From: a virus
Strand: one strand, 5' to 3'
Length of the DNA stretch: 64,000 nt
IMG/VR virus record: IMGVR_UViG_3300043470_000217
Span: 1-64,000 of that record
Shown here: piece after piece, positions 42,184-54,615 of the stretch
Numbering within the stretch: position 1 is the first letter of the stretch
Layout of the letters: the number at the start of each line of letters is the position of its first letter
Translations under genes and position numbers: made by a program
Notes under the pieces: generated by a model
Databases searched by the model: none
What the model saw: the letters and a program-made list of their open reading frames with translations, nothing else
What the model was told of the DNA's origin: nothing

Positions 42184-42885
42184 ATGGCTTATGTCTACAG
42201 ACATATCAGGTTAGATAAAAATGTACCTTTCTATATTGGATTAGGTACAGATTCTAATTATTCTAGAGCACACCAAACTAAAAGTAGAAATCAACACTGG
42301 CATAATGTTGTAAAAAACTCTGGGTATAGAGTAGAAATTATGTTAGATGATTTGTCTTTTGAAGAAGCTTGTGCTAAAGAAATAGAACTGATAAGTATGT
42401 ATGGCAGAATAGATACTTGTGGAGGTACTCTTGTTAATTGGACTGATGGAGGTCAAGGTACTTTAGGTTGGAGACATGAAGTTGGATACTGGACAGGAAA
42501 ATCTTTACCAGAATCTATGCGTAAGAATCTATCTGAAGTAGCTAAATTAAGAGTGGGAAAAAAGAACCACTTTTATGGAAAGAATCATTCTGAGGAAACA
42601 AAAGAAAAACTTAGACAGAGTAGATTAGGTAGCACCCTTACAGAAGAAACTAAACTTAAGATAAAAGAGTCTTTAAAGAACTCTGAAGCTTTTAAGAATA
42701 GAAAACATTCAGTAAGACTTGGTGCAGATAATCCTAAGTCTAAACAAGTAATCAATACTGAAACAGGAGAGATTTATGAGAATCTCAGAATTGCTTCAGA
42801 GATTACTGAAATAAGTTACAACAAGTTAAGATCTTACTGCCAAGGAAAAGTTAAAAGCAAGACTAACTGGAATTATCTACTATAA
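42184..42885 (+). CDS. GIY-YIG-like homing endonuclease with NUMOD3 repeats
   Basis: YVYRH...FYIGLG...R...E...LVNWTDGGQG nuclease domain; NHFYGKNHSEETKEKLR NUMOD3; C-terminal NUMOD1-like HTH. Confidence 0.8.
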   Translation: MAYVYRHIRLDKNVPFYIGLGTDSNYSRAHQTKSRNQHWHNVVKNSGYRVEIMLDDLSFEEACAKEIELISMYGRIDTCGGTLVNWTDGGQGTLGWRHEVGYWTGKSLPESMRKNLSEVAKLRVGKKNHFYGKNHSEETKEKLRQSRLGSTLTEETKLKIKESLKNSEAFKNRKHSVRLGADNPKSKQVINTETGEIYENLRIASEITEISYNKLRSYCQGKVKSKTNWNYLL

Positions 42886-42905: not shown

Positions 42906-43493
42906 ATGAGCTATACAAGAGAACAAATTGAAGCGGCTATGAAAGCCAAAGGTTACAAGTACTTTGAGAATGGAGAATTTAACGTAAACATTATTGGTGT
43001 ACGTAACTCTTCTACCGGTACTAAAGTAACTAATGTATTTGATGATCACTTAACTATTTCTTACAAAGAAGGTGGTGAGTGGAAATTTAAAATCTGGCCT
43101 GCTACTACAGATCCAGGAACTAAGGGTGTTAAAGAATTCCATAACGCTGCAGGTGTTGCACGTTTGGTACCTGGTCAATACTCAGGTTCACACCATGTAG
43201 GATTGCACCAAGGTAAGTATGAGGCCCTTAAGCAAAAGGCTAACGTTAAAGTTTACCGTGATGCTAACAAAGACATGAACTATGACGAGTCCAAGATACA
43301 AGAAGGCATCTTCGGTATTAATATTCATAAAGCTGGTGCAGACTCTACCTACGTTGAAAACTGGTCAGAAGGTTGCCAAGTGTTTAAGAAGTCTGCTGAC
43401 TTTGATGCATTCATGGTTATCTGTAAGAAGGCTGCGGCATTGGGTGGTAACTCTTTCACTTATACTCTTATTGAGTCTAAAGACATTAAATAA
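42906..43493 (+). CDS. Putative endolysin, YkuD/L,D-transpeptidase-like cysteine peptidase
   Basis: GINIH-x11-SEGCQV His/Cys motif; downstream of the holin. Confidence 0.65.
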   Translation: MSYTREQIEAAMKAKGYKYFENGEFNVNIIGVRNSSTGTKVTNVFDDHLTISYKEGGEWKFKIWPATTDPGTKGVKEFHNAAGVARLVPGQYSGSHHVGLHQGKYEALKQKANVKVYRDANKDMNYDESKIQEGIFGINIHKAGADSTYVENWSEGCQVFKKSADFDAFMVICKKAAALGGNSFTYTLIESKDIK

Positions 43494-43496
43494 ATT

Positions 43497-43946
43497 ATGA
43501 GGGGGTTATTAGTTAACCTCTTATTATTCTTAGCCGTCCCTTGTTTTGGTCAGATGAAAATTGACAAAGCAGGGGACGGTTGGGATTTAAAAGTTGATTC
43601 AGCAATTCAACTTATAAAGAGAGTAGACATAGCTAAGTATAAGCTGCTTGATACAAACTGTCATCAGGTATCTTTTATGATTAGTCCCTACTCTTCATGT
43701 TTATTAGAGAATGGTTTGGGACATATTTACATAGCTGTAGATGACATTAAACTAAACTCTATAAACAATATTGCTGTAGTGCTAATACATGAGAGTCTCC
43801 ACTTGTATATAGCCAAACTGGGTATAGCACTTATACCCGAAAAAGAAGAGACATTTTGCTATATGTATGAATTAAGCTTCATAAGTAAATTAGAAAATCC
43901 AGAGCCTTGGCTCACAGAACACGCTATAAATAACATAAAAAAATGA
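43497..43946 (+). CDS. Secreted HExxH metallopeptidase-like protein
   Basis: Signal peptide ending CFG|Q; LIHESLH followed by EETFCY. Confidence 0.55.
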   Translation: MRGLLVNLLLFLAVPCFGQMKIDKAGDGWDLKVDSAIQLIKRVDIAKYKLLDTNCHQVSFMISPYSSCLLENGLGHIYIAVDDIKLNSINNIAVVLIHESLHLYIAKLGIALIPEKEETFCYMYELSFISKLENPEPWLTEHAINNIKK

Positions 43947-45838
43947 AAAAATTATTCTCCTCATTAGTAACAACTTTGTTTGCAGTAGTAACCTATGCAC
44001 AAAGTGCTAGCACAAGTCCAGGCACAGGTCACTGGGTTGTGATTGATTCAGGTTATCAAGTTGCTACATCTTCTGCCGGACAGACTGTAGCTCCACTTTA
44101 CTTCTATAATACTTCTACATCCGAGAACATTACCGGTATGCAGTACAGAGTATTCTATGACAAAACTGCTTTCACTGCAGTAGTACCTAGTTTAAAAATC
44201 TCTTCTTCAGATCAGTATTTGCAATATGTAGATGACAACACTAATGGTCACTTAACAGTTACCGTAGCTTATACCGGATCTAGTTCTACATTTAACTACT
44301 CTAACGGAGCTACATTTGATCTTACGTTTACACATGCTGCAGAGTCTGTATGGAATACATTAGATTCTATCAAGACTCTTAAGATTTCAGGTGTACAATC
44401 TTTCTCAAACAAAGCTGCTACTAGCTGGGGTAATGATACTACCTTGGTAGTTTACTCTTATGGTGGTCGCTTCAATCAGAAGGTATTAAGATTTGCGGCT
44501 AAGTTTAAGAACGTTACAGGATCAGATGCTAAATTCCTTTGGGTATCTTTAGAGAAAAGAGCTAAAGGTTCTTCAAGCTGGTCTCAAATAGAAGCTAAAA
44601 CTACTAACTCTTTGGGACATGTAGTGTTTAAAAAATTCTTGGATACTACTTACTGGGATGTAAGAATGGTAGTTAAGGGTGATACAATGACTCCAGGTAA
44701 TGTATTCTCTACTGCAGATGCGCAGAAGATTAACCAAGCTATTTTAGCTCAGTATAGTCCTGCCGGTTTTGATTACTATACCATGGATGTAAACGGATCA
44801 GATGGTAATATTACTATTGCTGATGTATACTCTGTATACGGAAGACTTGCCGGAAGATTCACTGCTTGGCCTAACTCTAAGAAAGACATCTTATTCTTTA
44901 CTGTAGCTGAGTACAATGCTATTAACGGTTCAAGTACAAACTATACTGGTACTTATACTGGTGAGACTAACTTTATCTACTCTGTAGATGGTAAAGACTC
45001 TATCACTTACTATGTAGCTGTTAAAGGTGATGCTAACTCTACCGGATTTAAAATGGCCCGTTTAACACCCATCAAGATTGTTAACCCTGCTAATGCTAAG
45101 AAATATATCATAGATGAAACTGTTCAGTATGATTTCCCTGCAGAGACTATTGAGATCAACATGCCTAAAGTAACCGTAGATGAAGGTAACTTAGTTAATG
45201 TACCAGTTAAAGTTTTAACTGATGCTAAAAACTTAGGCGCATTGCAGTTAGACTTACGTTATGATACTGCTTACTTAGAGTTTAAGAAAGTAGAAAACAC
45301 CGAGAAGATCATGAAATGGACTTCTTACTTGAATCCTTCTAACGGTACTATCTCTTGGGGAGGTGCCGACTTAACTAATGAGAACATGCTTAATGACGGA
45401 GAGCAAGTATTCACTCTTCAGTTTATTGCTAAGAAGCCACAAGACTCTTGGGCTACTGCAGCTTTATGGACAGGTGCTAAGTATGTAGGAGATAAGAACT
45501 CTAAAGACATGAATATCACCCCGGCTATGGGAGTAATTGAAGTACGTAGAATTAACAAGGGAACTATTTCCCTGAATGATTTAAATTCTATTATAGTATT
45601 CCCTAACCCTACAGAAGGTGATGTACAGGTACAGTTTAGAATTAAAGAAGATGGATATGTAGATATGTCTATCTCTGATGAAGTAGGAAGACGCATTCAA
45701 ACATTGTTAAAAGAAAACATGCCAGCCGGCAAGTATAAATACATGGCCAAACTAGATAGTTTAGCTGATGGTATTTATGTACTATCTGTAACTACAGATA
45801 CAGAATCACTTCACTCTAAAATAATAGTACAAAAATGA
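43943..45838 (+). CDS. T9SS-sorted protein with two cohesin-like domains and a dockerin-like domain
   Basis: Signal peptide TYA|Q; cohesin-like ITGMQYRVFYD and LGALQLDLRYD; EF-hand-like DVNGSDGNITIAD; type A CTD VFPNP...GIYVL...KIIVQK. Confidence 0.8.
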   Translation: MKKLFSSLVTTLFAVVTYAQSASTSPGTGHWVVIDSGYQVATSSAGQTVAPLYFYNTSTSENITGMQYRVFYDKTAFTAVVPSLKISSSDQYLQYVDDNTNGHLTVTVAYTGSSSTFNYSNGATFDLTFTHAAESVWNTLDSIKTLKISGVQSFSNKAATSWGNDTTLVVYSYGGRFNQKVLRFAAKFKNVTGSDAKFLWVSLEKRAKGSSSWSQIEAKTTNSLGHVVFKKFLDTTYWDVRMVVKGDTMTPGNVFSTADAQKINQAILAQYSPAGFDYYTMDVNGSDGNITIADVYSVYGRLAGRFTAWPNSKKDILFFTVAEYNAINGSSTNYTGTYTGETNFIYSVDGKDSITYYVAVKGDANSTGFKMARLTPIKIVNPANAKKYIIDETVQYDFPAETIEINMPKVTVDEGNLVNVPVKVLTDAKNLGALQLDLRYDTAYLEFKKVENTEKIMKWTSYLNPSNGTISWGGADLTNENMLNDGEQVFTLQFIAKKPQDSWATAALWTGAKYVGDKNSKDMNITPAMGVIEVRRINKGTISLNDLNSIIVFPNPTEGDVQVQFRIKEDGYVDMSISDEVGRRIQTLLKENMPAGKYKYMAKLDSLADGIYVLSVTTDTESLHSKIIVQK

Positions 45839-46203
45839 ACATTAAAAAAGCACTTGGTCTTAACCAAGCAGAACCCGTAGCAGTAGATTCTAATAATAGA
45901 TTCTATTACATGCTACAACAAATGCAAGCCAACCGTTGGAAAATTACAGCCATTGTATTAGGTTTGTTCTTCTTTATCATCCTTGGTATTAACTCTGCTG
46001 TATTCTTTGGAGTAGAGATTGCAGAGTCTTGGAAAGAAATGTTACTTATTCTTTTTGGAGCATTTGTAGGTAACTTGAACAAAGTAGTTGACTACTGGTT
46101 TAACTCAGAAGACAGAGATAAAATGTTAATAGCTAAGGTGGATGAGGAAGATGATACTCCAGAAGTTTTAGCAGCTAAGTATAGTAAAAAAGAAGAAAAT
46201 TAA
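45835..46203 (+). CDS. Two-TM membrane protein
   Basis: Two hydrophobic helices; KEMLLILFGAFVGNLNKVVDYWF. Confidence 0.6.
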   Translation: MNIKKALGLNQAEPVAVDSNNRFYYMLQQMQANRWKITAIVLGLFFFIILGINSAVFFGVEIAESWKEMLLILFGAFVGNLNKVVDYWFNSEDRDKMLIAKVDEEDDTPEVLAAKYSKKEEN

Positions 46204-46214
46204 TAAATAATAAT

Positions 46215-46538
46215 ATGTCTGAAGAACAAGAAGAAAGCGTAATGTCAGCTACTAAGAAAGCTATCATTGGCGCAGTAACCACTGCTGTAACTGCAGGAGG
46301 TGCATGGTTTGCCACTCACTTTGGTGGCGGTGAAGAACCCAAAGAAGAAGCTAAAACAGAACAAGCACCCGCTGCTGCTCCTGTGATTAACTTGAATCTA
46401 GAGAACAACAACACTAATCAGCAGAAACAATCTGCAGGTGGTACTAACACAATTATTAAAGAGCGTGTTATTGAGAAGCCAGCTGCTACTCCTGCTCCTG
46501 CTGCTAAGCCTGAACCTAAAGAAGAAGATCCGTGGTAA
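46215..46538 (+). CDS. Single-anchor membrane protein with Pro/Ala/Glu-rich linker
   Basis: N-terminal hydrophobic helix; PAAAP and PAPAAKPEPKEEDPW tail. Confidence 0.6.
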   Translation: MSEEQEESVMSATKKAIIGAVTTAVTAGGAWFATHFGGGEEPKEEAKTEQAPAAAPVINLNLENNNTNQQKQSAGGTNTIIKERVIEKPAATPAPAAKPEPKEEDPW

Positions 46539-47230
46539 AAAAATGGTTTAATGGGTTCATGACTTTAGTGGTTATGACATTAGCTGGTTGTGGTAGTATG
46601 AAAACTACTACAGATGATGAGCCAGTAGAGGTAAAAAATATCTCTACTGTTTCCGGTTATACTGATTCTATTAAGAAAACAGTACAGGTGGTTAATGTAG
46701 ACATGACAAAAGTCCTAAGTTTATATCCTGGTTTACAAGAGAAGAACGTAGGTCTTGGGTTTGCTGAATCAGTTCTAGATTATTTAGATGAAACAAATAG
46801 ATTTATATTCACAGAAGAGAAGTCAGAGATTAAAGAAAGAATGGTTGCTCAATTCAAAGCTTCAAAGAAAGGTGTATTTGATGAACCAATTGATGGGAAA
46901 GGTAAGATTAAGCCTGCTCACTACTTTGTTTACGTTACTGTGGCTGATTTTGCTGTTGATGAAGACGAGCAAGTTGATGGCCTTAAGTCAAAGGTTGTTG
47001 TTACTACCTTCATACGTTTACAAGTTAGGTTTGTTGATGCTAAGACAGGGCAAATCTATATTGGATCTGGTGAAGGTGAGTCAACAAAAACTGGTGAATC
47101 ATTCTTAAAATCTTTAGATAACATCAAATTCTCTCAAAGCACTGTAGGTAAAGCTACTAGAAAGTCTCTTGAAACTGCTTGTACTAATGTGATTCAAAAT
47201 CTCATTAAGTCAGGTGTGTTTAAAAACTAA
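46532..47230 (+). CDS. CsgG/HfaB-like lipoprotein
   Basis: Lipobox LAGC; LDETNRFIFTEE and LQVRFVDAKTGQI..GSGEG match the CsgG-family pattern. Confidence 0.7.
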   Translation: MVKKWFNGFMTLVVMTLAGCGSMKTTTDDEPVEVKNISTVSGYTDSIKKTVQVVNVDMTKVLSLYPGLQEKNVGLGFAESVLDYLDETNRFIFTEEKSEIKERMVAQFKASKKGVFDEPIDGKGKIKPAHYFVYVTVADFAVDEDEQVDGLKSKVVVTTFIRLQVRFVDAKTGQIYIGSGEGESTKTGESFLKSLDNIKFSQSTVGKATRKSLETACTNVIQNLIKSGVFKN

Positions 47231-48665
47231 AATATTAATTCTATTCATGATGGCTCTGTCTCTCAAAGGACAGAGCTTTTTGTATTCGTTTAAGGACCCA
47301 TGCACACAGGAGTTAAAATTCATTAATGCAAACATGTCTAGTCCTATAGTAATTGCTTACTACGGACAAGTAAAAACTTTCTCCTATACAGAGTTACAAG
47401 ACGGAACTTTTGATAATTGGATAAATAGTGTATATTTGAAGTATAAAAATACATCACCCTGTCAAGGAGTTGCAGTAACAACTACTACAACTACTACAAC
47501 AAATACCACTTTAAACATTGTAAACAATGTCATGAATCTAAGTGCTATTTCAAATGTAGGTAGTGTTAATGTAGATGTTGGATCTAGCACCTCTTCAGGT
47601 ACAAACATAGGAACAATCAAAACCAATAATAAAAATGACAATGGATCAAGTAGTAGTAATCGGCCTGGTAGCACTAGTAGCAATAGTGATAATCCAGATT
47701 CTAAAACTCCGGAAGGAGGAGAACCAACTCAAGGAACAGGAAGCTCAGGAGATAATCCGAGCAGCCCAGGAAGTGATGGTGGAAGCAACAGCTCCAGTTC
47801 AGGCTCCAGTAGTGGAGGAAACTCCAGTGGTAGCTCCAGTGGTAGTGGAAGCAGTAGTGGAAGTAGTGGAAGCTCCCAAGGTGGAGGAGGAAGTGGTGGT
47901 AAAACCGAAGAAAAAACGGAAGTACAAACCGAGAAACCCACAGAACAAAAAATAGAAGATACTAAAACTGAGCAACAAAAGACTCAGTCTTCTAGTACAG
48001 CAAAGGCAGCCAGCAAAGCAAAAGCTGAGGTTGCTAAACCTGCTATTCTTGTTACCGGGGATATAGTAGGTATACAAAAAGCAGATGATGGTGCTCAAGA
48101 TGCAAGAGGTACTATGTCCTTTACAAGAGTAAAAGGGGATGGTACTTCTTCATTAGGTGGCTCTGTAGATTATATGCTAAATGCTAAGATAGCAAACATA
48201 TCTTTATTACGCTCTTGGATAGGAGCTAATAGCAAAGGTCACAAACATATCAATGTTATATCCAATGGACTTAGTGTAATGCCTAAGTCTATGTCAAACA
48301 CTCTTCTATTTGTAAGAGTTAATTCAGTTAAGAATTTTACTGCGCTCTATGGAGGTGCCGGTACATATGGTAAATTGTATGGTGAAGAAATGATATCTAC
48401 AATTGCTATAGCCGGTTTTATGTATAAGGGTAAACTTACCAAACACATAGACGCTACGGTTATTATGGCTGGTATCTACTCTCCATACTCTAAGTATTAC
48501 ACAGAGTCTTTATTTGAAGCTAAGCCTATTATGATTCCTTTCTTTAACTTTACCTACAAGATGACTAAGACTTTTGGCTTAGGTATTACAGGAGGCGGAA
48601 CATATATAGCCGGGCAAAACATTTTAAACTATCAAATGCTTCTAGGTGCTAAACTATTACTATGA
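47214..48665 (+). CDS. Secreted protein with Gly/Ser linker and probable C-terminal outer-membrane beta-barrel
   Basis: Signal peptide; Cys-pair N-domain; S/G-rich linker; C-terminal alternating amphipathic strands ending LGAKLLL. Confidence 0.6.
   Translation: MCLKTKILILFMMALSLKGQSFLYSFKDPCTQELKFINANMSSPIVIAYYGQVKTFSYTELQDGTFDNWINSVYLKYKNTSPCQGVAVTTTTTTTTNTTLNIVNNVMNLSAISNVGSVNVDVGSSTSSGTNIGTIKTNNKNDNGSSSSNRPGSTSSNSDNPDSKTPEGGEPTQGTGSSGDNPSSPGSDGGSNSSSSGSSSGGNSSGSSSGSGSSSGSSGSSQGGGGSGGKTEEKTEVQTEKPTEQKIEDTKTEQQKTQSSSTAKAASKAKAEVAKPAILVTGDIVGIQKADDGAQDARGTMSFTRVKGDGTSSLGGSVDYMLNAKIANISLLRSWIGANSKGHKHINVISNGLSVMPKSMSNTLLFVRVNSVKNFTALYGGAGTYGKLYGEEMISTIAIAGFMYKGKLTKHIDATVIMAGIYSPYSKYYTESLFEAKPIMIPFFNFTYKMTKTFGLGITGGGTYIAGQNILNYQMLLGAKLLL
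47635..47955 (+). CDS. Overprinted small membrane-anchored protein (N-terminal TM, basic C-tail)
   Basis: Nested in the +1 frame of 47214-48665; A-rich leader AATAATAAAA-ATG; clean TM helix, E/V/A/P stalk, KPKKKRKYKPR tail. Confidence 0.55.
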   Translation: MTMDQVVVIGLVALVAIVIIQILKLRKEENQLKEQEAQEIIRAAQEVMVEATAPVQAPVVEETPVVAPVVVEAVVEVVEAPKVEEEVVVKPKKKRKYKPRNPQNKK

Positions 48666-49648
48666 GATATTTGGTTCTTTTATTGTTTTTACTAGCGCAG
48701 AAACTCTCTGCTCAGTTTACATATTCCGGATATCTGTATAATGCTAATGGATCTGGAGCAAACAATGTTGCTATAAAACTATATAGAAGAACCAACTCAA
48801 CTATTACAGGCTTTACTAATCAGCAGAACTATAACGGACACTCTTATTACCGTTCTACAGGAACTGCTACATGGACTACTGCTAGATCTAACTGTGCAGC
48901 TATGGGCGGTTATCTAGTAACTATTACTACTGCAGCAGAACAAAGTTTTATATTTAATATATGGCCTTCAGGATGGATAGGATTAACAGATGAAGTAACT
49001 GAGGGTACTTGGAGATGGGTAACAGGAGAAACTTATTCTTATAAAAACTGGAACTCAGGAGAACCTAATAACGCAGGTAATGAAGACTATGTACAGTTTG
49101 TATCTAACGGTAAATGGAATGACTTACCTAACAATGTTTCATTACCTTACGTACTTGAGTTTAACTATGTAGTAACTACTTCTTCTTGGGCACTGTATAA
49201 GACTATATATACTAACTCTTCGGGTTACTATTCTATATCTGAAGCTTATGACCCGTCTAAAGAATACTACATAGAGATAAGTGCTCCTACTAGAGTACAA
49301 GCTTATACTACTTCTGATATACAAGCTGTATCTAATATAGTATTAGGAAAAACTACCAGGAATGGTTTATCTTTCCACATGTTTGATGTAAATGATGATG
49401 GGATAATCTCAGTAGCAGATAAGTACTACGTAGCTGCAAGGAAAGCTGGTAGGTTTTCTAGATGGAGAACAGCACCGGATGTAAGAATATTTACAACTGC
49501 ACAGTATAATGCTATCAAAGCAGCAACTAGTAATGTACGTGCTGCTTATCCCGGAGTATCTACACATACTACAACCACTTTAACTTCAGGAGGAACTTTA
49601 AATCTATATCTAATAGCTCCCGGTTATGCTGGAGCAGTAACTTATTAA
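48662..49648 (+). CDS. Secreted C-type lectin plus dockerin-like protein
   Basis: Signal peptide LSA|Q; C-type lectin motifs WTTARSNC...WIGL...WNSGEPNN...ED...WND; DVNDDGIISVAD dockerin-like loop. Confidence 0.8.
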   Translation: MRYLVLLLFLLAQKLSAQFTYSGYLYNANGSGANNVAIKLYRRTNSTITGFTNQQNYNGHSYYRSTGTATWTTARSNCAAMGGYLVTITTAAEQSFIFNIWPSGWIGLTDEVTEGTWRWVTGETYSYKNWNSGEPNNAGNEDYVQFVSNGKWNDLPNNVSLPYVLEFNYVVTTSSWALYKTIYTNSSGYYSISEAYDPSKEYYIEISAPTRVQAYTTSDIQAVSNIVLGKTTRNGLSFHMFDVNDDGIISVADKYYVAARKAGRFSRWRTAPDVRIFTTAQYNAIKAATSNVRAAYPGVSTHTTTTLTSGGTLNLYLIAPGYAGAVTY

Positions 49649-54324: not shown

Positions 54325-54615
54325 TTACCAGATGATGGCAACATCTTGCTCACCAACCATAATCTTAATACCTGCATCAGGCATTTCAATAATCTCTGCG
54401 TTTTGCAAGACAATGGTAGGAATATAAACTTTATCTCCAACTACTACTTCGGTGACATCTTCACCAACAGCAAATACTTCAAGATTAGTCCATTTTTTCA
54501 TTAAGTCAGCGTCAATCTCTGCTTGTTGTGCAGCAGTAAGTTCAATACCGCTTTTTTCTTTGTGGGGTTTGCTAAGAAGTATTCTTCTACCTCTTAATTT
54601 TTTAAAGTTGCTCAT
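54325..54615 (-). CDS. groES: GroES-like co-chaperonin
   Basis: LRGRRILL...SGIEL...VFAVGEDV..VVVGDKV...EQDVAII is a Cpn10 pattern. Confidence 0.75.
   Translation of the reverse strand: MSNFKKLRGRRILLSKPHKEKSGIELTAAQQAEIDADLMKKWTNLEVFAVGEDVTEVVVGDKVYIPTIVLQNAEIIEMPDAGIKIMVGEQDVAIIW

Follow-up and report, generated by a model that had tools for sequence, protein, structure and literature searches.

The window analysed here, the first 64 kb of a 125,557-base virus record (IMG/VR record IMGVR_UViG_3300043470_000217, rated complete by CheckV), carries an open reading frame (ORF) that lies wholly inside a larger gene and is very probably a gene in its own right. The ORF occupies 47635–47955 on the + strand, encodes 106 amino acids (aa) from its first ATG and ends with a TAG at 47953–47955. 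As it begins 421 bases (47635 minus 47214) into the host gene, a 483-aa entry of the ORF list at 47214–48665 (+), it is read in the +1 frame of that gene. An earlier reading of the letters, here called the sequence-only reading, had proposed a true overprinted gene, and the coordinates and translation it gave, with hydrophobic, charged and V/E/A/P stretches and a KPKKKRKYKPRNPQNKK end, were reproduced. We put at roughly 0.86 the probability that this ORF is a genuine protein-coding gene, maintained by selection and overprinted on the linker of a gene for a barrel-like protein. The reading is considered very probable because host-synonymous sites are protected across the ORF and because another phage carries a free-standing form of the gene. 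From its N terminus, the protein would comprise a transmembrane helix (residues 6–23; 47650–47703), a charged helix continuous with it that has Lys and Arg (K/R) at its start (residues 24–52; 47704–47790), an acidic, V/E/A/P-rich disordered spacer of variable length (47791–47898) and a polybasic C-terminal tail (47899–47952), all on the + strand.

Homologues of the host gene were taken from viral contigs (46 loci) and from metagenome contigs (80 loci kept of 138 relatives). Full-length genes made up 109 of the 124 matching ORFs and truncated ones were dropped, which together with the window gave 110 sequences, 98 of them distinct as coding sequences. These were codon-aligned, a tree was built from the well-aligned domain columns, and clades were split by eye: A, which includes the window (8 sequences), B (33), the L060 type (2), C (17), D (18), E (9), F (5), a basal clade (5) and the single sequence L110. 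Clades A, B and the L060 type carry a +1 ORF of 93–118 aa with the same tail in 43 of 43 sequences. Clades C, E and F have the ATG and the helix and reach a stop after 32–59 aa at a host Val or Ile codon, clade D has a +1 ORF of 58–114 aa, the basal clade lacks the helix and L110 lacks the ORF. The sequence-only reading had counted +1 stops, or loss of the ATG or the membrane helix, in homologous linkers as evidence against a gene. Such stops do occur in some homologues, and the basal clade is helix-less, but the shortened ORFs are themselves constrained.

Suppression of synonymous change in the host frame, which the earlier reading had named as a check, was found over helix and tail, bounded by the ATG and by clade-specific stops. 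In a first data set of 20 clade B sequences, with the flanking domains as the reference, helix, tail and spacer had synonymous rates of 0.24 (p = 4.6e-5), 0.32 (p = 0.0036) and 0.87, respectively; in clade A, the host-synonymous rate of the tail was 0.26 times the reference. Between the window and L002, the helix shows no synonymous event in 21 site-equivalents (p = 3.6e-5). Across all 33 clade B sequences, the helix has 2 changes at fourfold sites against 27.0 expected and 5 at twofold pyrimidine sites against 17.1, and the eight clade A sequences have none at either (11.6 and 8.4 expected). The few helix changes seen are mostly AGT/AGC and AAT/AAC exchanges, which read as V/A and I/T in the +1 frame. 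Empirical-Bayes site rates from IQ-TREE were likewise lower in the ORF than in the domains, by factors of 0.47 in B (first 30 columns), 0.63 in A, 0.73 in E, 0.76 in F and 0.76 in C, while two negative controls, the linker columns before the ATG in every clade (0.96–1.24) and the helix-less basal clade (1.19), were not.

The suppression has sharp edges. At the ATG, third-position changes number 28 in the 12 columns upstream and 12 in the 20 columns downstream in clade B (p = 3e-5), and 9 and 0, respectively, in clade A (p = 1.5e-4). At the other end, changes in the 20 columns before and the 20 columns after each clade's own +1 stop were 6 and 35 in E (p = 2.4e-6), 3 and 13 in A (p = 0.011), 10 and 21 in F (p = 0.035), 22 and 35 in C (p = 0.056) and 16 and 27 in B (p = 0.063), the last two not significant alone; subclade D1, with a fourth stop position, has 2 and 15. 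The stops that bound the suppression thus lie at four different alignment positions. Control boundaries show little or no step in the basal clade (24 and 22) or in D as a whole (65 and 53), and columns holding the stop of a foreign clade are flat for E at the A/B stop (31 and 29), C at the same place (45 and 49) and B at the E stop (27 and 28). Exceptions are B at the C/F stop (32 and 49), D at the E and C/F stops (41 and 62), F at the A/B stop (22 and 12) and A at the E and C/F stops (3 and 10, 3 and 17). Outside the ORF, clades A and E have no 20-column window that matches the conservation of the ORF's lowest one, and windows as low as the ORF median are absent in E and make up 0.6% in A.

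The pattern of change within the ORF points the same way. The host first position, which is the +1 wobble position, varies most, with changes by host codon position of 16:10:6 in clade E and, summed by hand over three conserved clade B segments, 55:28:33; this is the reverse of what a host-only frame predicts. Rare host codons are frozen where the +1 frame uses them: CGG, which encodes the helix Gly in +1, is one, and TCG, CCG or ACG, which encode the +1 Arg after the helix, are kept while the host residue drifts among S, P and T.

The second line of evidence is a copy outside any host gene. A profile search against 1.84 billion representatives returned 8 matches, some of which carry F and Y residues that a nested copy could hardly encode. 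A degenerate DNA pattern of the tail found 17 viral contigs, 16 of them nested copies already in the homologue set and one new, L147, an 81.5-kb phage record that is 69% complete. Its gene (L147:11763–12050, − strand) specifies a 95-aa protein that shares start, helix, central motif and tail with the nested form, and is flanked by other small genes without being enclosed in a larger ORF. Across the copy, 12 stops interrupt the former host frame, and no homologue of the barrel protein was detected at E ≤ 1 in the 81.5-kb record. Homology between the free and nested loci at the DNA level runs only from 8 nt before the ATG through the stop, and the copy's own frame has a stop 13 codons upstream of the ATG.

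Compared with the nested copy in L023, the free copy differs at 23, 15 and 36 sites by ORF codon position, and 57 of 92 residues are identical. Over seven nested copies, 34–57 of 87–92 aligned residues are identical, differences are most frequent at ORF third positions, and dN/dS is 0.31–0.52. Its third positions are A- or T-ending as in ordinary genes, with T in 28 of 96 codons as against 9 of 107 (stop included) in the nested copy. Judged by these substitutions, the free-standing protein is under purifying selection. The copy was kept while the host frame decayed, and a by-product or an RNA element would not survive in this way; the existence of the copy also implies that the nested gene would work without the barrel gene. 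Taken together, synonymous suppression bounded by ATG and stop and a selected free-standing copy support the true overprinted gene that the sequence-only reading had proposed.

Ahead of the copy, L147:12067–13416 (−) encodes two DUF2589 proteins and a protein of 86 aa in which a membrane helix is combined with a coiled-coil-like stretch; a P22-like portal gene lies about 5 kb beyond these neighbours. A protein homologue search found 19 proteins of 78–117 aa with a KPKKKRKYK tail, each called on a short contig (the longest of 2,662 bases), so that gene callers overlook the nested gene except on such contigs. One of these proteins, P0019, closely resembles the L147 protein. Scans of viral contigs for loci encoding two others, P0021 and P0022, found none, and a scan of genome contigs for free copies yielded just one further nested copy. 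A profile search of the phage's own genome gave no second copy, Pfam gave no family for the nested protein, and a protein Atlas search with it gave no match at 0.9 or above.

The host protein consists, in order, of a signal-peptide-like N terminus, a small Cys-pair domain, a poly-Thr run, an S/G/N-rich disordered linker, short helices and a barrel-like C-terminal domain, and Pfam and PHROG searches assigned it to no family. An AlphaFold2 model from 41 sequences has a small N-terminal domain, two short helices at residues 233–260 and 12 long strands at 265–469; its mean pLDDT is 49.8, with 60–76 in the barrel blocks and values below 50 over residues 69–265. The top Foldseek matches of this model in the PDB were outer-membrane barrels only (the TamA barrel, NanC, KdgM and autotransporter beta domains), all of them weak (best E 7.9e-4, TM-scores 0.2–0.5). 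On the strength of a low-confidence model (pLDDT 60–76), the host gene is thus predicted to encode an outer-membrane-barrel-like protein of about 12 strands. The order of its parts also resembles that of autotransporters, whose beta domains are among the weak matches. The nested ORF had been described as starting and stopping close to the linker ends, which holds only roughly, as it takes up the central 321 of the about 591 bases (around 47454–48044) that form the low-confidence segment of the model.

Translation of the nested ORF may well begin at its second ATG (47641–47643, +), which gives a 104-aa product: the first ATG is missing in 4 of 8 A-type sequences, the second is present in all 8, and the profile match in the phage's own genome begins at 47641. 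The A-rich leader ahead of the start codons (47615–47634, +), already pointed out in the sequence-only reading, is there and has no Shine–Dalgarno sequence. The context of ATG 47641 has A at −3, at −6 and at three of the five positions −11 to −15, as in the A-position rule for Bacteroidetes leaders given in PMC7366714, which is also the source of the promoter statements below. Host third positions vary freely in the leader, which places it outside the constraint.

The helix reaches a 19-residue Kyte–Doolittle maximum of 2.91, and an AlphaFold2 model of the protein from 32 sequences is a single helix over residues 3–52, with pLDDT of 91–97 over the first 20 residues and a drop from 88 to 68 by residue 52 in the charged part. 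The spacer (residues 52–88) has pLDDT below 50 and many indels in the alignment, and the tail is modelled with modest confidence. According to the positive-inside rule, the K/R-rich flank of a membrane helix is cytoplasmic. In all 32 aligned proteins, the 2–4 residues before the helix contain no K or R and the 15 residues after it contain 2–5, so the C terminus is predicted to be cytoplasmic. The product would accordingly be a single-pass inner-membrane protein of 104–106 aa, with its N terminus outside and its C terminus inside (N-out/C-in).

The tail motif VKPKKKRKYK is invariant in 32 of 32 aligned proteins, as are P102, K106, V47, E50, A51 and E79 elsewhere in the protein, with R26 nearly so. 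In the 33 clade B sequences, the first ten host codons of the tail show no third-position change, and no K-to-R change occurs anywhere in the tail, although such a change would be host-synonymous. This tail-wide absence suggests that the tail recognises a specific ligand.

As a guess, the protein may serve an accessory membrane function, e.g. in the timing of lysis or in the exclusion of other phages. Among specific roles, that of a holin-like or single-gene-lysis membrane protein, as with protein E of phiX174, is unlikely, though it fares best. The birth route and layout match those of E inside D (PMC8227390), where T, frequent in the third positions of the older gene, comes to occupy second positions of the new one and so encodes a hydrophobic helix. 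Like phage holins, the protein is small, with one membrane helix, a charged C terminus and a location in the late region, and the window protein has a weak match to the holin family PHROG 6918 (E = 0.0058). An endolysin-like gene (42906–43493; phrog_33083, E = 1.1e-13) lies about 4 kb upstream. However, the holin match is absent in all three other members tried, none of which match any lysis family, the cassette already has two small membrane proteins, and the neighbours of the free copy are DUF2589 proteins rather than lysis genes.

The sequence-only reading had likened the arrangement to embedded spanin pairs and suggested an inner-membrane partner of the barrel protein. As in lambda Rz/Rz1 (PMC6139136), the inner gene is completely contained in the +1 frame of the outer one, and the two encode envelope proteins of a phage that infects a Gram-negative host. 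The envelope-protein cassette that includes it is downstream of the endolysin-like gene, and a lipoprotein gene with a lipobox-like LAGCGS (46532–47230, +) immediately precedes the host gene. The same source describes i-spanins as N-terminal-anchor proteins with a periplasmic, coiled-coil domain that pair with an outer-membrane lipoprotein, and in spanins the embedded product is that lipoprotein while the outer gene encodes the inner-membrane protein; here the arrangement is reversed. The predicted N-out/C-in topology, shared by 32 of 32 proteins, is the opposite of that of an i-spanin, the nested protein has no lipobox, there is no lipobox-partner logic, no spanin profile in Pfam or PHROGs was matched, and the small gene also occurs without the outer gene, in a record with no detectable barrel gene, which argues against an obligate partnership. 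The spanin-like proposal is therefore left without support and appears improbable.

Slightly less probable still is that the ORF is an untranslated by-product, the +1 shadow of a hydrophilic linker written in T-ending codons in an AT-rich genome (34.6% G+C; 64–83% of Ser, Asn, Gly and Asp codons T-ending genome-wide). Only host codons whose second base is T (those for F, L, I, M or V) can create a +1 stop, and the linker contains no such residue in clade A, the window included, and none or one in clade B. When the host protein was synonymously re-coded 5000 times with the genome's own codon usage, the +1 frame stayed open over at least 114 codons in 93% of re-codings, held an ATG-initiated ORF of at least 106 aa in 87%, and reached a 19-residue hydrophobicity as high as that observed in 46% and of at least 1.6 in 98%. 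The basic end is expected from A-rich host codons for Lys, Glu and Thr. The caveat in the earlier reading that Val/Glu richness would follow from host codons was borne out and applies equally to openness. Further, other frames are open too, with three minus-strand ORFs of 70–99 aa crossing the same DNA.

These results weigh against the reading of a selected gene, as ORF, ATG, hydrophobic stretch and basic end are all expected from host composition, and with them the presence of the ORF in homologues loses its weight. The conservation named as a check in the sequence-only reading was indeed mostly found, as 97 of 98 homologues have a +1 ORF here that begins with ATG and reaches at least 30 aa and 91 of 98 have a hydrophobic stretch, but it is uninformative, since composition forces it. 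Several other points count on the same side. The boundary steps of clades C and B do not reach significance alone, and neither clade D as a whole nor the basal clade has one. A hand-calculated dNN/dNS in the style of Wei and Zhang does not discriminate for the +1 frame (0.67 in the ORF, 0.71 in the flanks). Synonymous rates are uneven along the host gene, and a 63-nt block outside the ORF is still more conserved. The p-values treat columns as independent, and clades and boundaries were chosen after the tree had been seen. In a cultured Flavobacterium phage with a related barrel gene, described below, the +1 ORF is 72 aa long and lacks the helix. Finally, metatranscriptome contigs (four runs compared) cover 47609–47825 in three runs, but as contigs without strand or ends they are uninformative on translation. 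Set against all this, a by-product leaves unexplained the synonymous freezing from the ATG to clade-specific stops, as well as a free copy with dN/dS of 0.31–0.52 whose former host frame has 12 stops.

A further possibility, that the constraint reflects a nucleic-acid element such as an RNA structure or a regulatory or recombination site, is highly improbable. Non-coding constraint does occur in this gene: a block of 63 nt in the region coding for the N domain (47415–47477) has 21 consecutive codons without a third-position change in 33 clade B sequences, where about two changes per codon would be expected, and no ORF is open there. The tail segment also folds slightly better than shuffled sequences (z = −2.0). 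However, the helix block does not (z = −0.22), and folding of the conserved blocks gave no convincing structure overall (z of +0.47, −0.22, −2.0 and −1.9). Further, A- and B-type nucleotide sequences differ widely while the protein keeps its helix Gly, the Arg that follows the helix and its tail, the variation is periodic with the +1 wobble position freest, and the free copy differs most at ORF third positions.

The 63-nt block itself may act as an internal promoter, placed some 190 nt upstream of the nested gene. A TTTG-N18-TATATTTG sequence (47409–47438) precedes and partly overlaps the block and fits the Bacteroidetes −33/−7 promoter consensus; three clade members lack the motif. The other two matches to the pattern in the window have the same N18 spacing and lie upstream of 53549 and of a groES-like gene (54325–54615). 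In the window as a whole, TTTG-N17-21-TAnnTTTG occurs 3 times against 2.39 expected, which is no enrichment. Upstream of the ATG in clades C, D and E, the conserved host peptide GTFD probably gives rise to the TAnnTTTG motifs as by-products.

Programmed +1 frameshifting into the ORF would tether the N-terminal domain to the inner membrane in an alternative isoform, and a periplasmic domain followed by a helix and a K/R-rich cytoplasmic tail would be textbook type I topology; the +1 frame is moreover open over the 8 codons that precede the ATG, where short A runs occur. This route is hardly credible, given that constraint begins at the ATG, that the upstream codons, AAA among them, vary freely, and that the free copy starts at the same ATG behind its own-frame stop. 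An antisense gene in the codon-complementary frame was considered and rejected: none of the 41 sequences from clades A and B offers that frame an ATG, the frame opens and closes at varying places, and beyond the +1 stop the host codons follow their usual periodicity.

If the ORF is a gene, as favoured here, its origin would have cost little. A linker without hydrophobic residues cannot close its +1 frame, so that the raw material would be free: read in +1, T-ending Ser, Asn and Gly codons would supply V, I and L, and K, R and P would come from A-rich codons for Lys, Glu and Thr. Selection would afterwards have frozen the synonymous sites of the host. Ribosomes would initiate independently at ATG 47641 (or 47635), behind an A-rich leader without a Shine–Dalgarno sequence as is usual in Bacteroidota, and read the linker DNA one base out of register. 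The product would keep its 2–4-residue N terminus outside the cell membrane, cross it with a helix that continues as a charged cytoplasmic helix, and extend through the disordered acidic spacer to the invariant polybasic tail. Most likely, this tail attaches to some anionic partner on the inner side of the membrane.

Among known cases, E inside D of phiX174 comes closest. In both, a small +1 overprinted protein draws a membrane helix from T-rich third positions that serve as its second positions, and here re-coding reproduces the helix. The two differ in several ways. Here the overprinted region is a disordered linker, that of an outer-membrane-barrel-like gene, and the phage, with its 125.6 kb of double-stranded DNA, is under no obvious pressure to economise on genome length; the protein also has an invariant polybasic tail and a free-standing copy, and a role for it in lysis would be putative. 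Similarly, the 'TM-first' birth described for yeast (PMC7005711) shares with it the tendency of thymine-rich sequence to encode membrane helices, later shaped by selection. There the source is non-genic DNA, whereas here it is the third positions of a working gene, with both frames selected.

Tentatively, and at slightly less than even odds, the gene may have been born de novo in the linker and later copied, with 8 nt of leader, into another phage as an ordinary gene. The nested-to-free direction would follow solely from a shared derived motif, as the free copy carries the PQKP variant, found in part of clade B, and not the HQKIKAG variant of clades B and C. A literature search on overlapping or nested genes in crAss-like phages found no account of this gene. 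To our knowledge, fully nested genes in large tailed phages are rarely recognised, spanins apart.

The host gene is embedded in a run of genes for envelope proteins. A Pfam search identified a cohesin protein with a type IX secretion sorting domain (43943–45838) and a C-type lectin protein (48662–49648), and the two small membrane proteins mentioned above (45835–46203 and 46215–46538) come from the ORF list. Directly upstream of the endolysin-like gene lies a homing-endonuclease-like gene (42184–42885) with a NUMOD3 motif (phrog_314, E = 1.4e-25). The lipoprotein gene, too, holds a 106-aa ORF with a hydrophobic stretch in its +1 frame (46788–47108, +), the counterpart of which is also open in the relatives L006 (2575–2895) and L150 (2145–2465); this ORF may be a chance product. 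Between the lipoprotein and barrel genes, L006 (3082–3723), L044 and L102 have a 213-aa ORF with a GIY-YIG-like motif and the look of a homing endonuclease; L002 and L025 show a variant N terminus. In the relatives that carry this insert, the signal-peptide region of the barrel protein differs.

The cultured Flavobacterium phage Immutovirus MW353176 has a similar cluster (MW353176.1, 11441–18865), with a lectin, a cohesin protein, small proteins, a homologue of the lipoprotein gene and a 30%-identical homologue of the barrel protein, in an order unlike that of the window; its annotation includes no nested gene. This likeness suggests a mobile surface-protein cassette and a Flavobacterium-like host.

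If the proposed history is true, it would document a full life cycle of a gene, from a forced proto-ORF through a selected nested gene to an independent one, with clades freezing the ORF at different lengths (31–118 aa) through single host Val or Ile codons. An ORF cut to different lengths by clade, together with one free gene, would also be a natural experiment in which dual-coding constraint and release from it can be measured. More generally, a hydrophilic linker written in T-ending codons carries an open and hydrophobic +1 frame, which would offer a general route to new membrane proteins. Through the nested ORF, a surface-remodelling cassette common to freshwater Bacteroidota phages and a cultured Flavobacterium phage would gain a so far unannotated membrane protein whose polybasic tail is strictly conserved.

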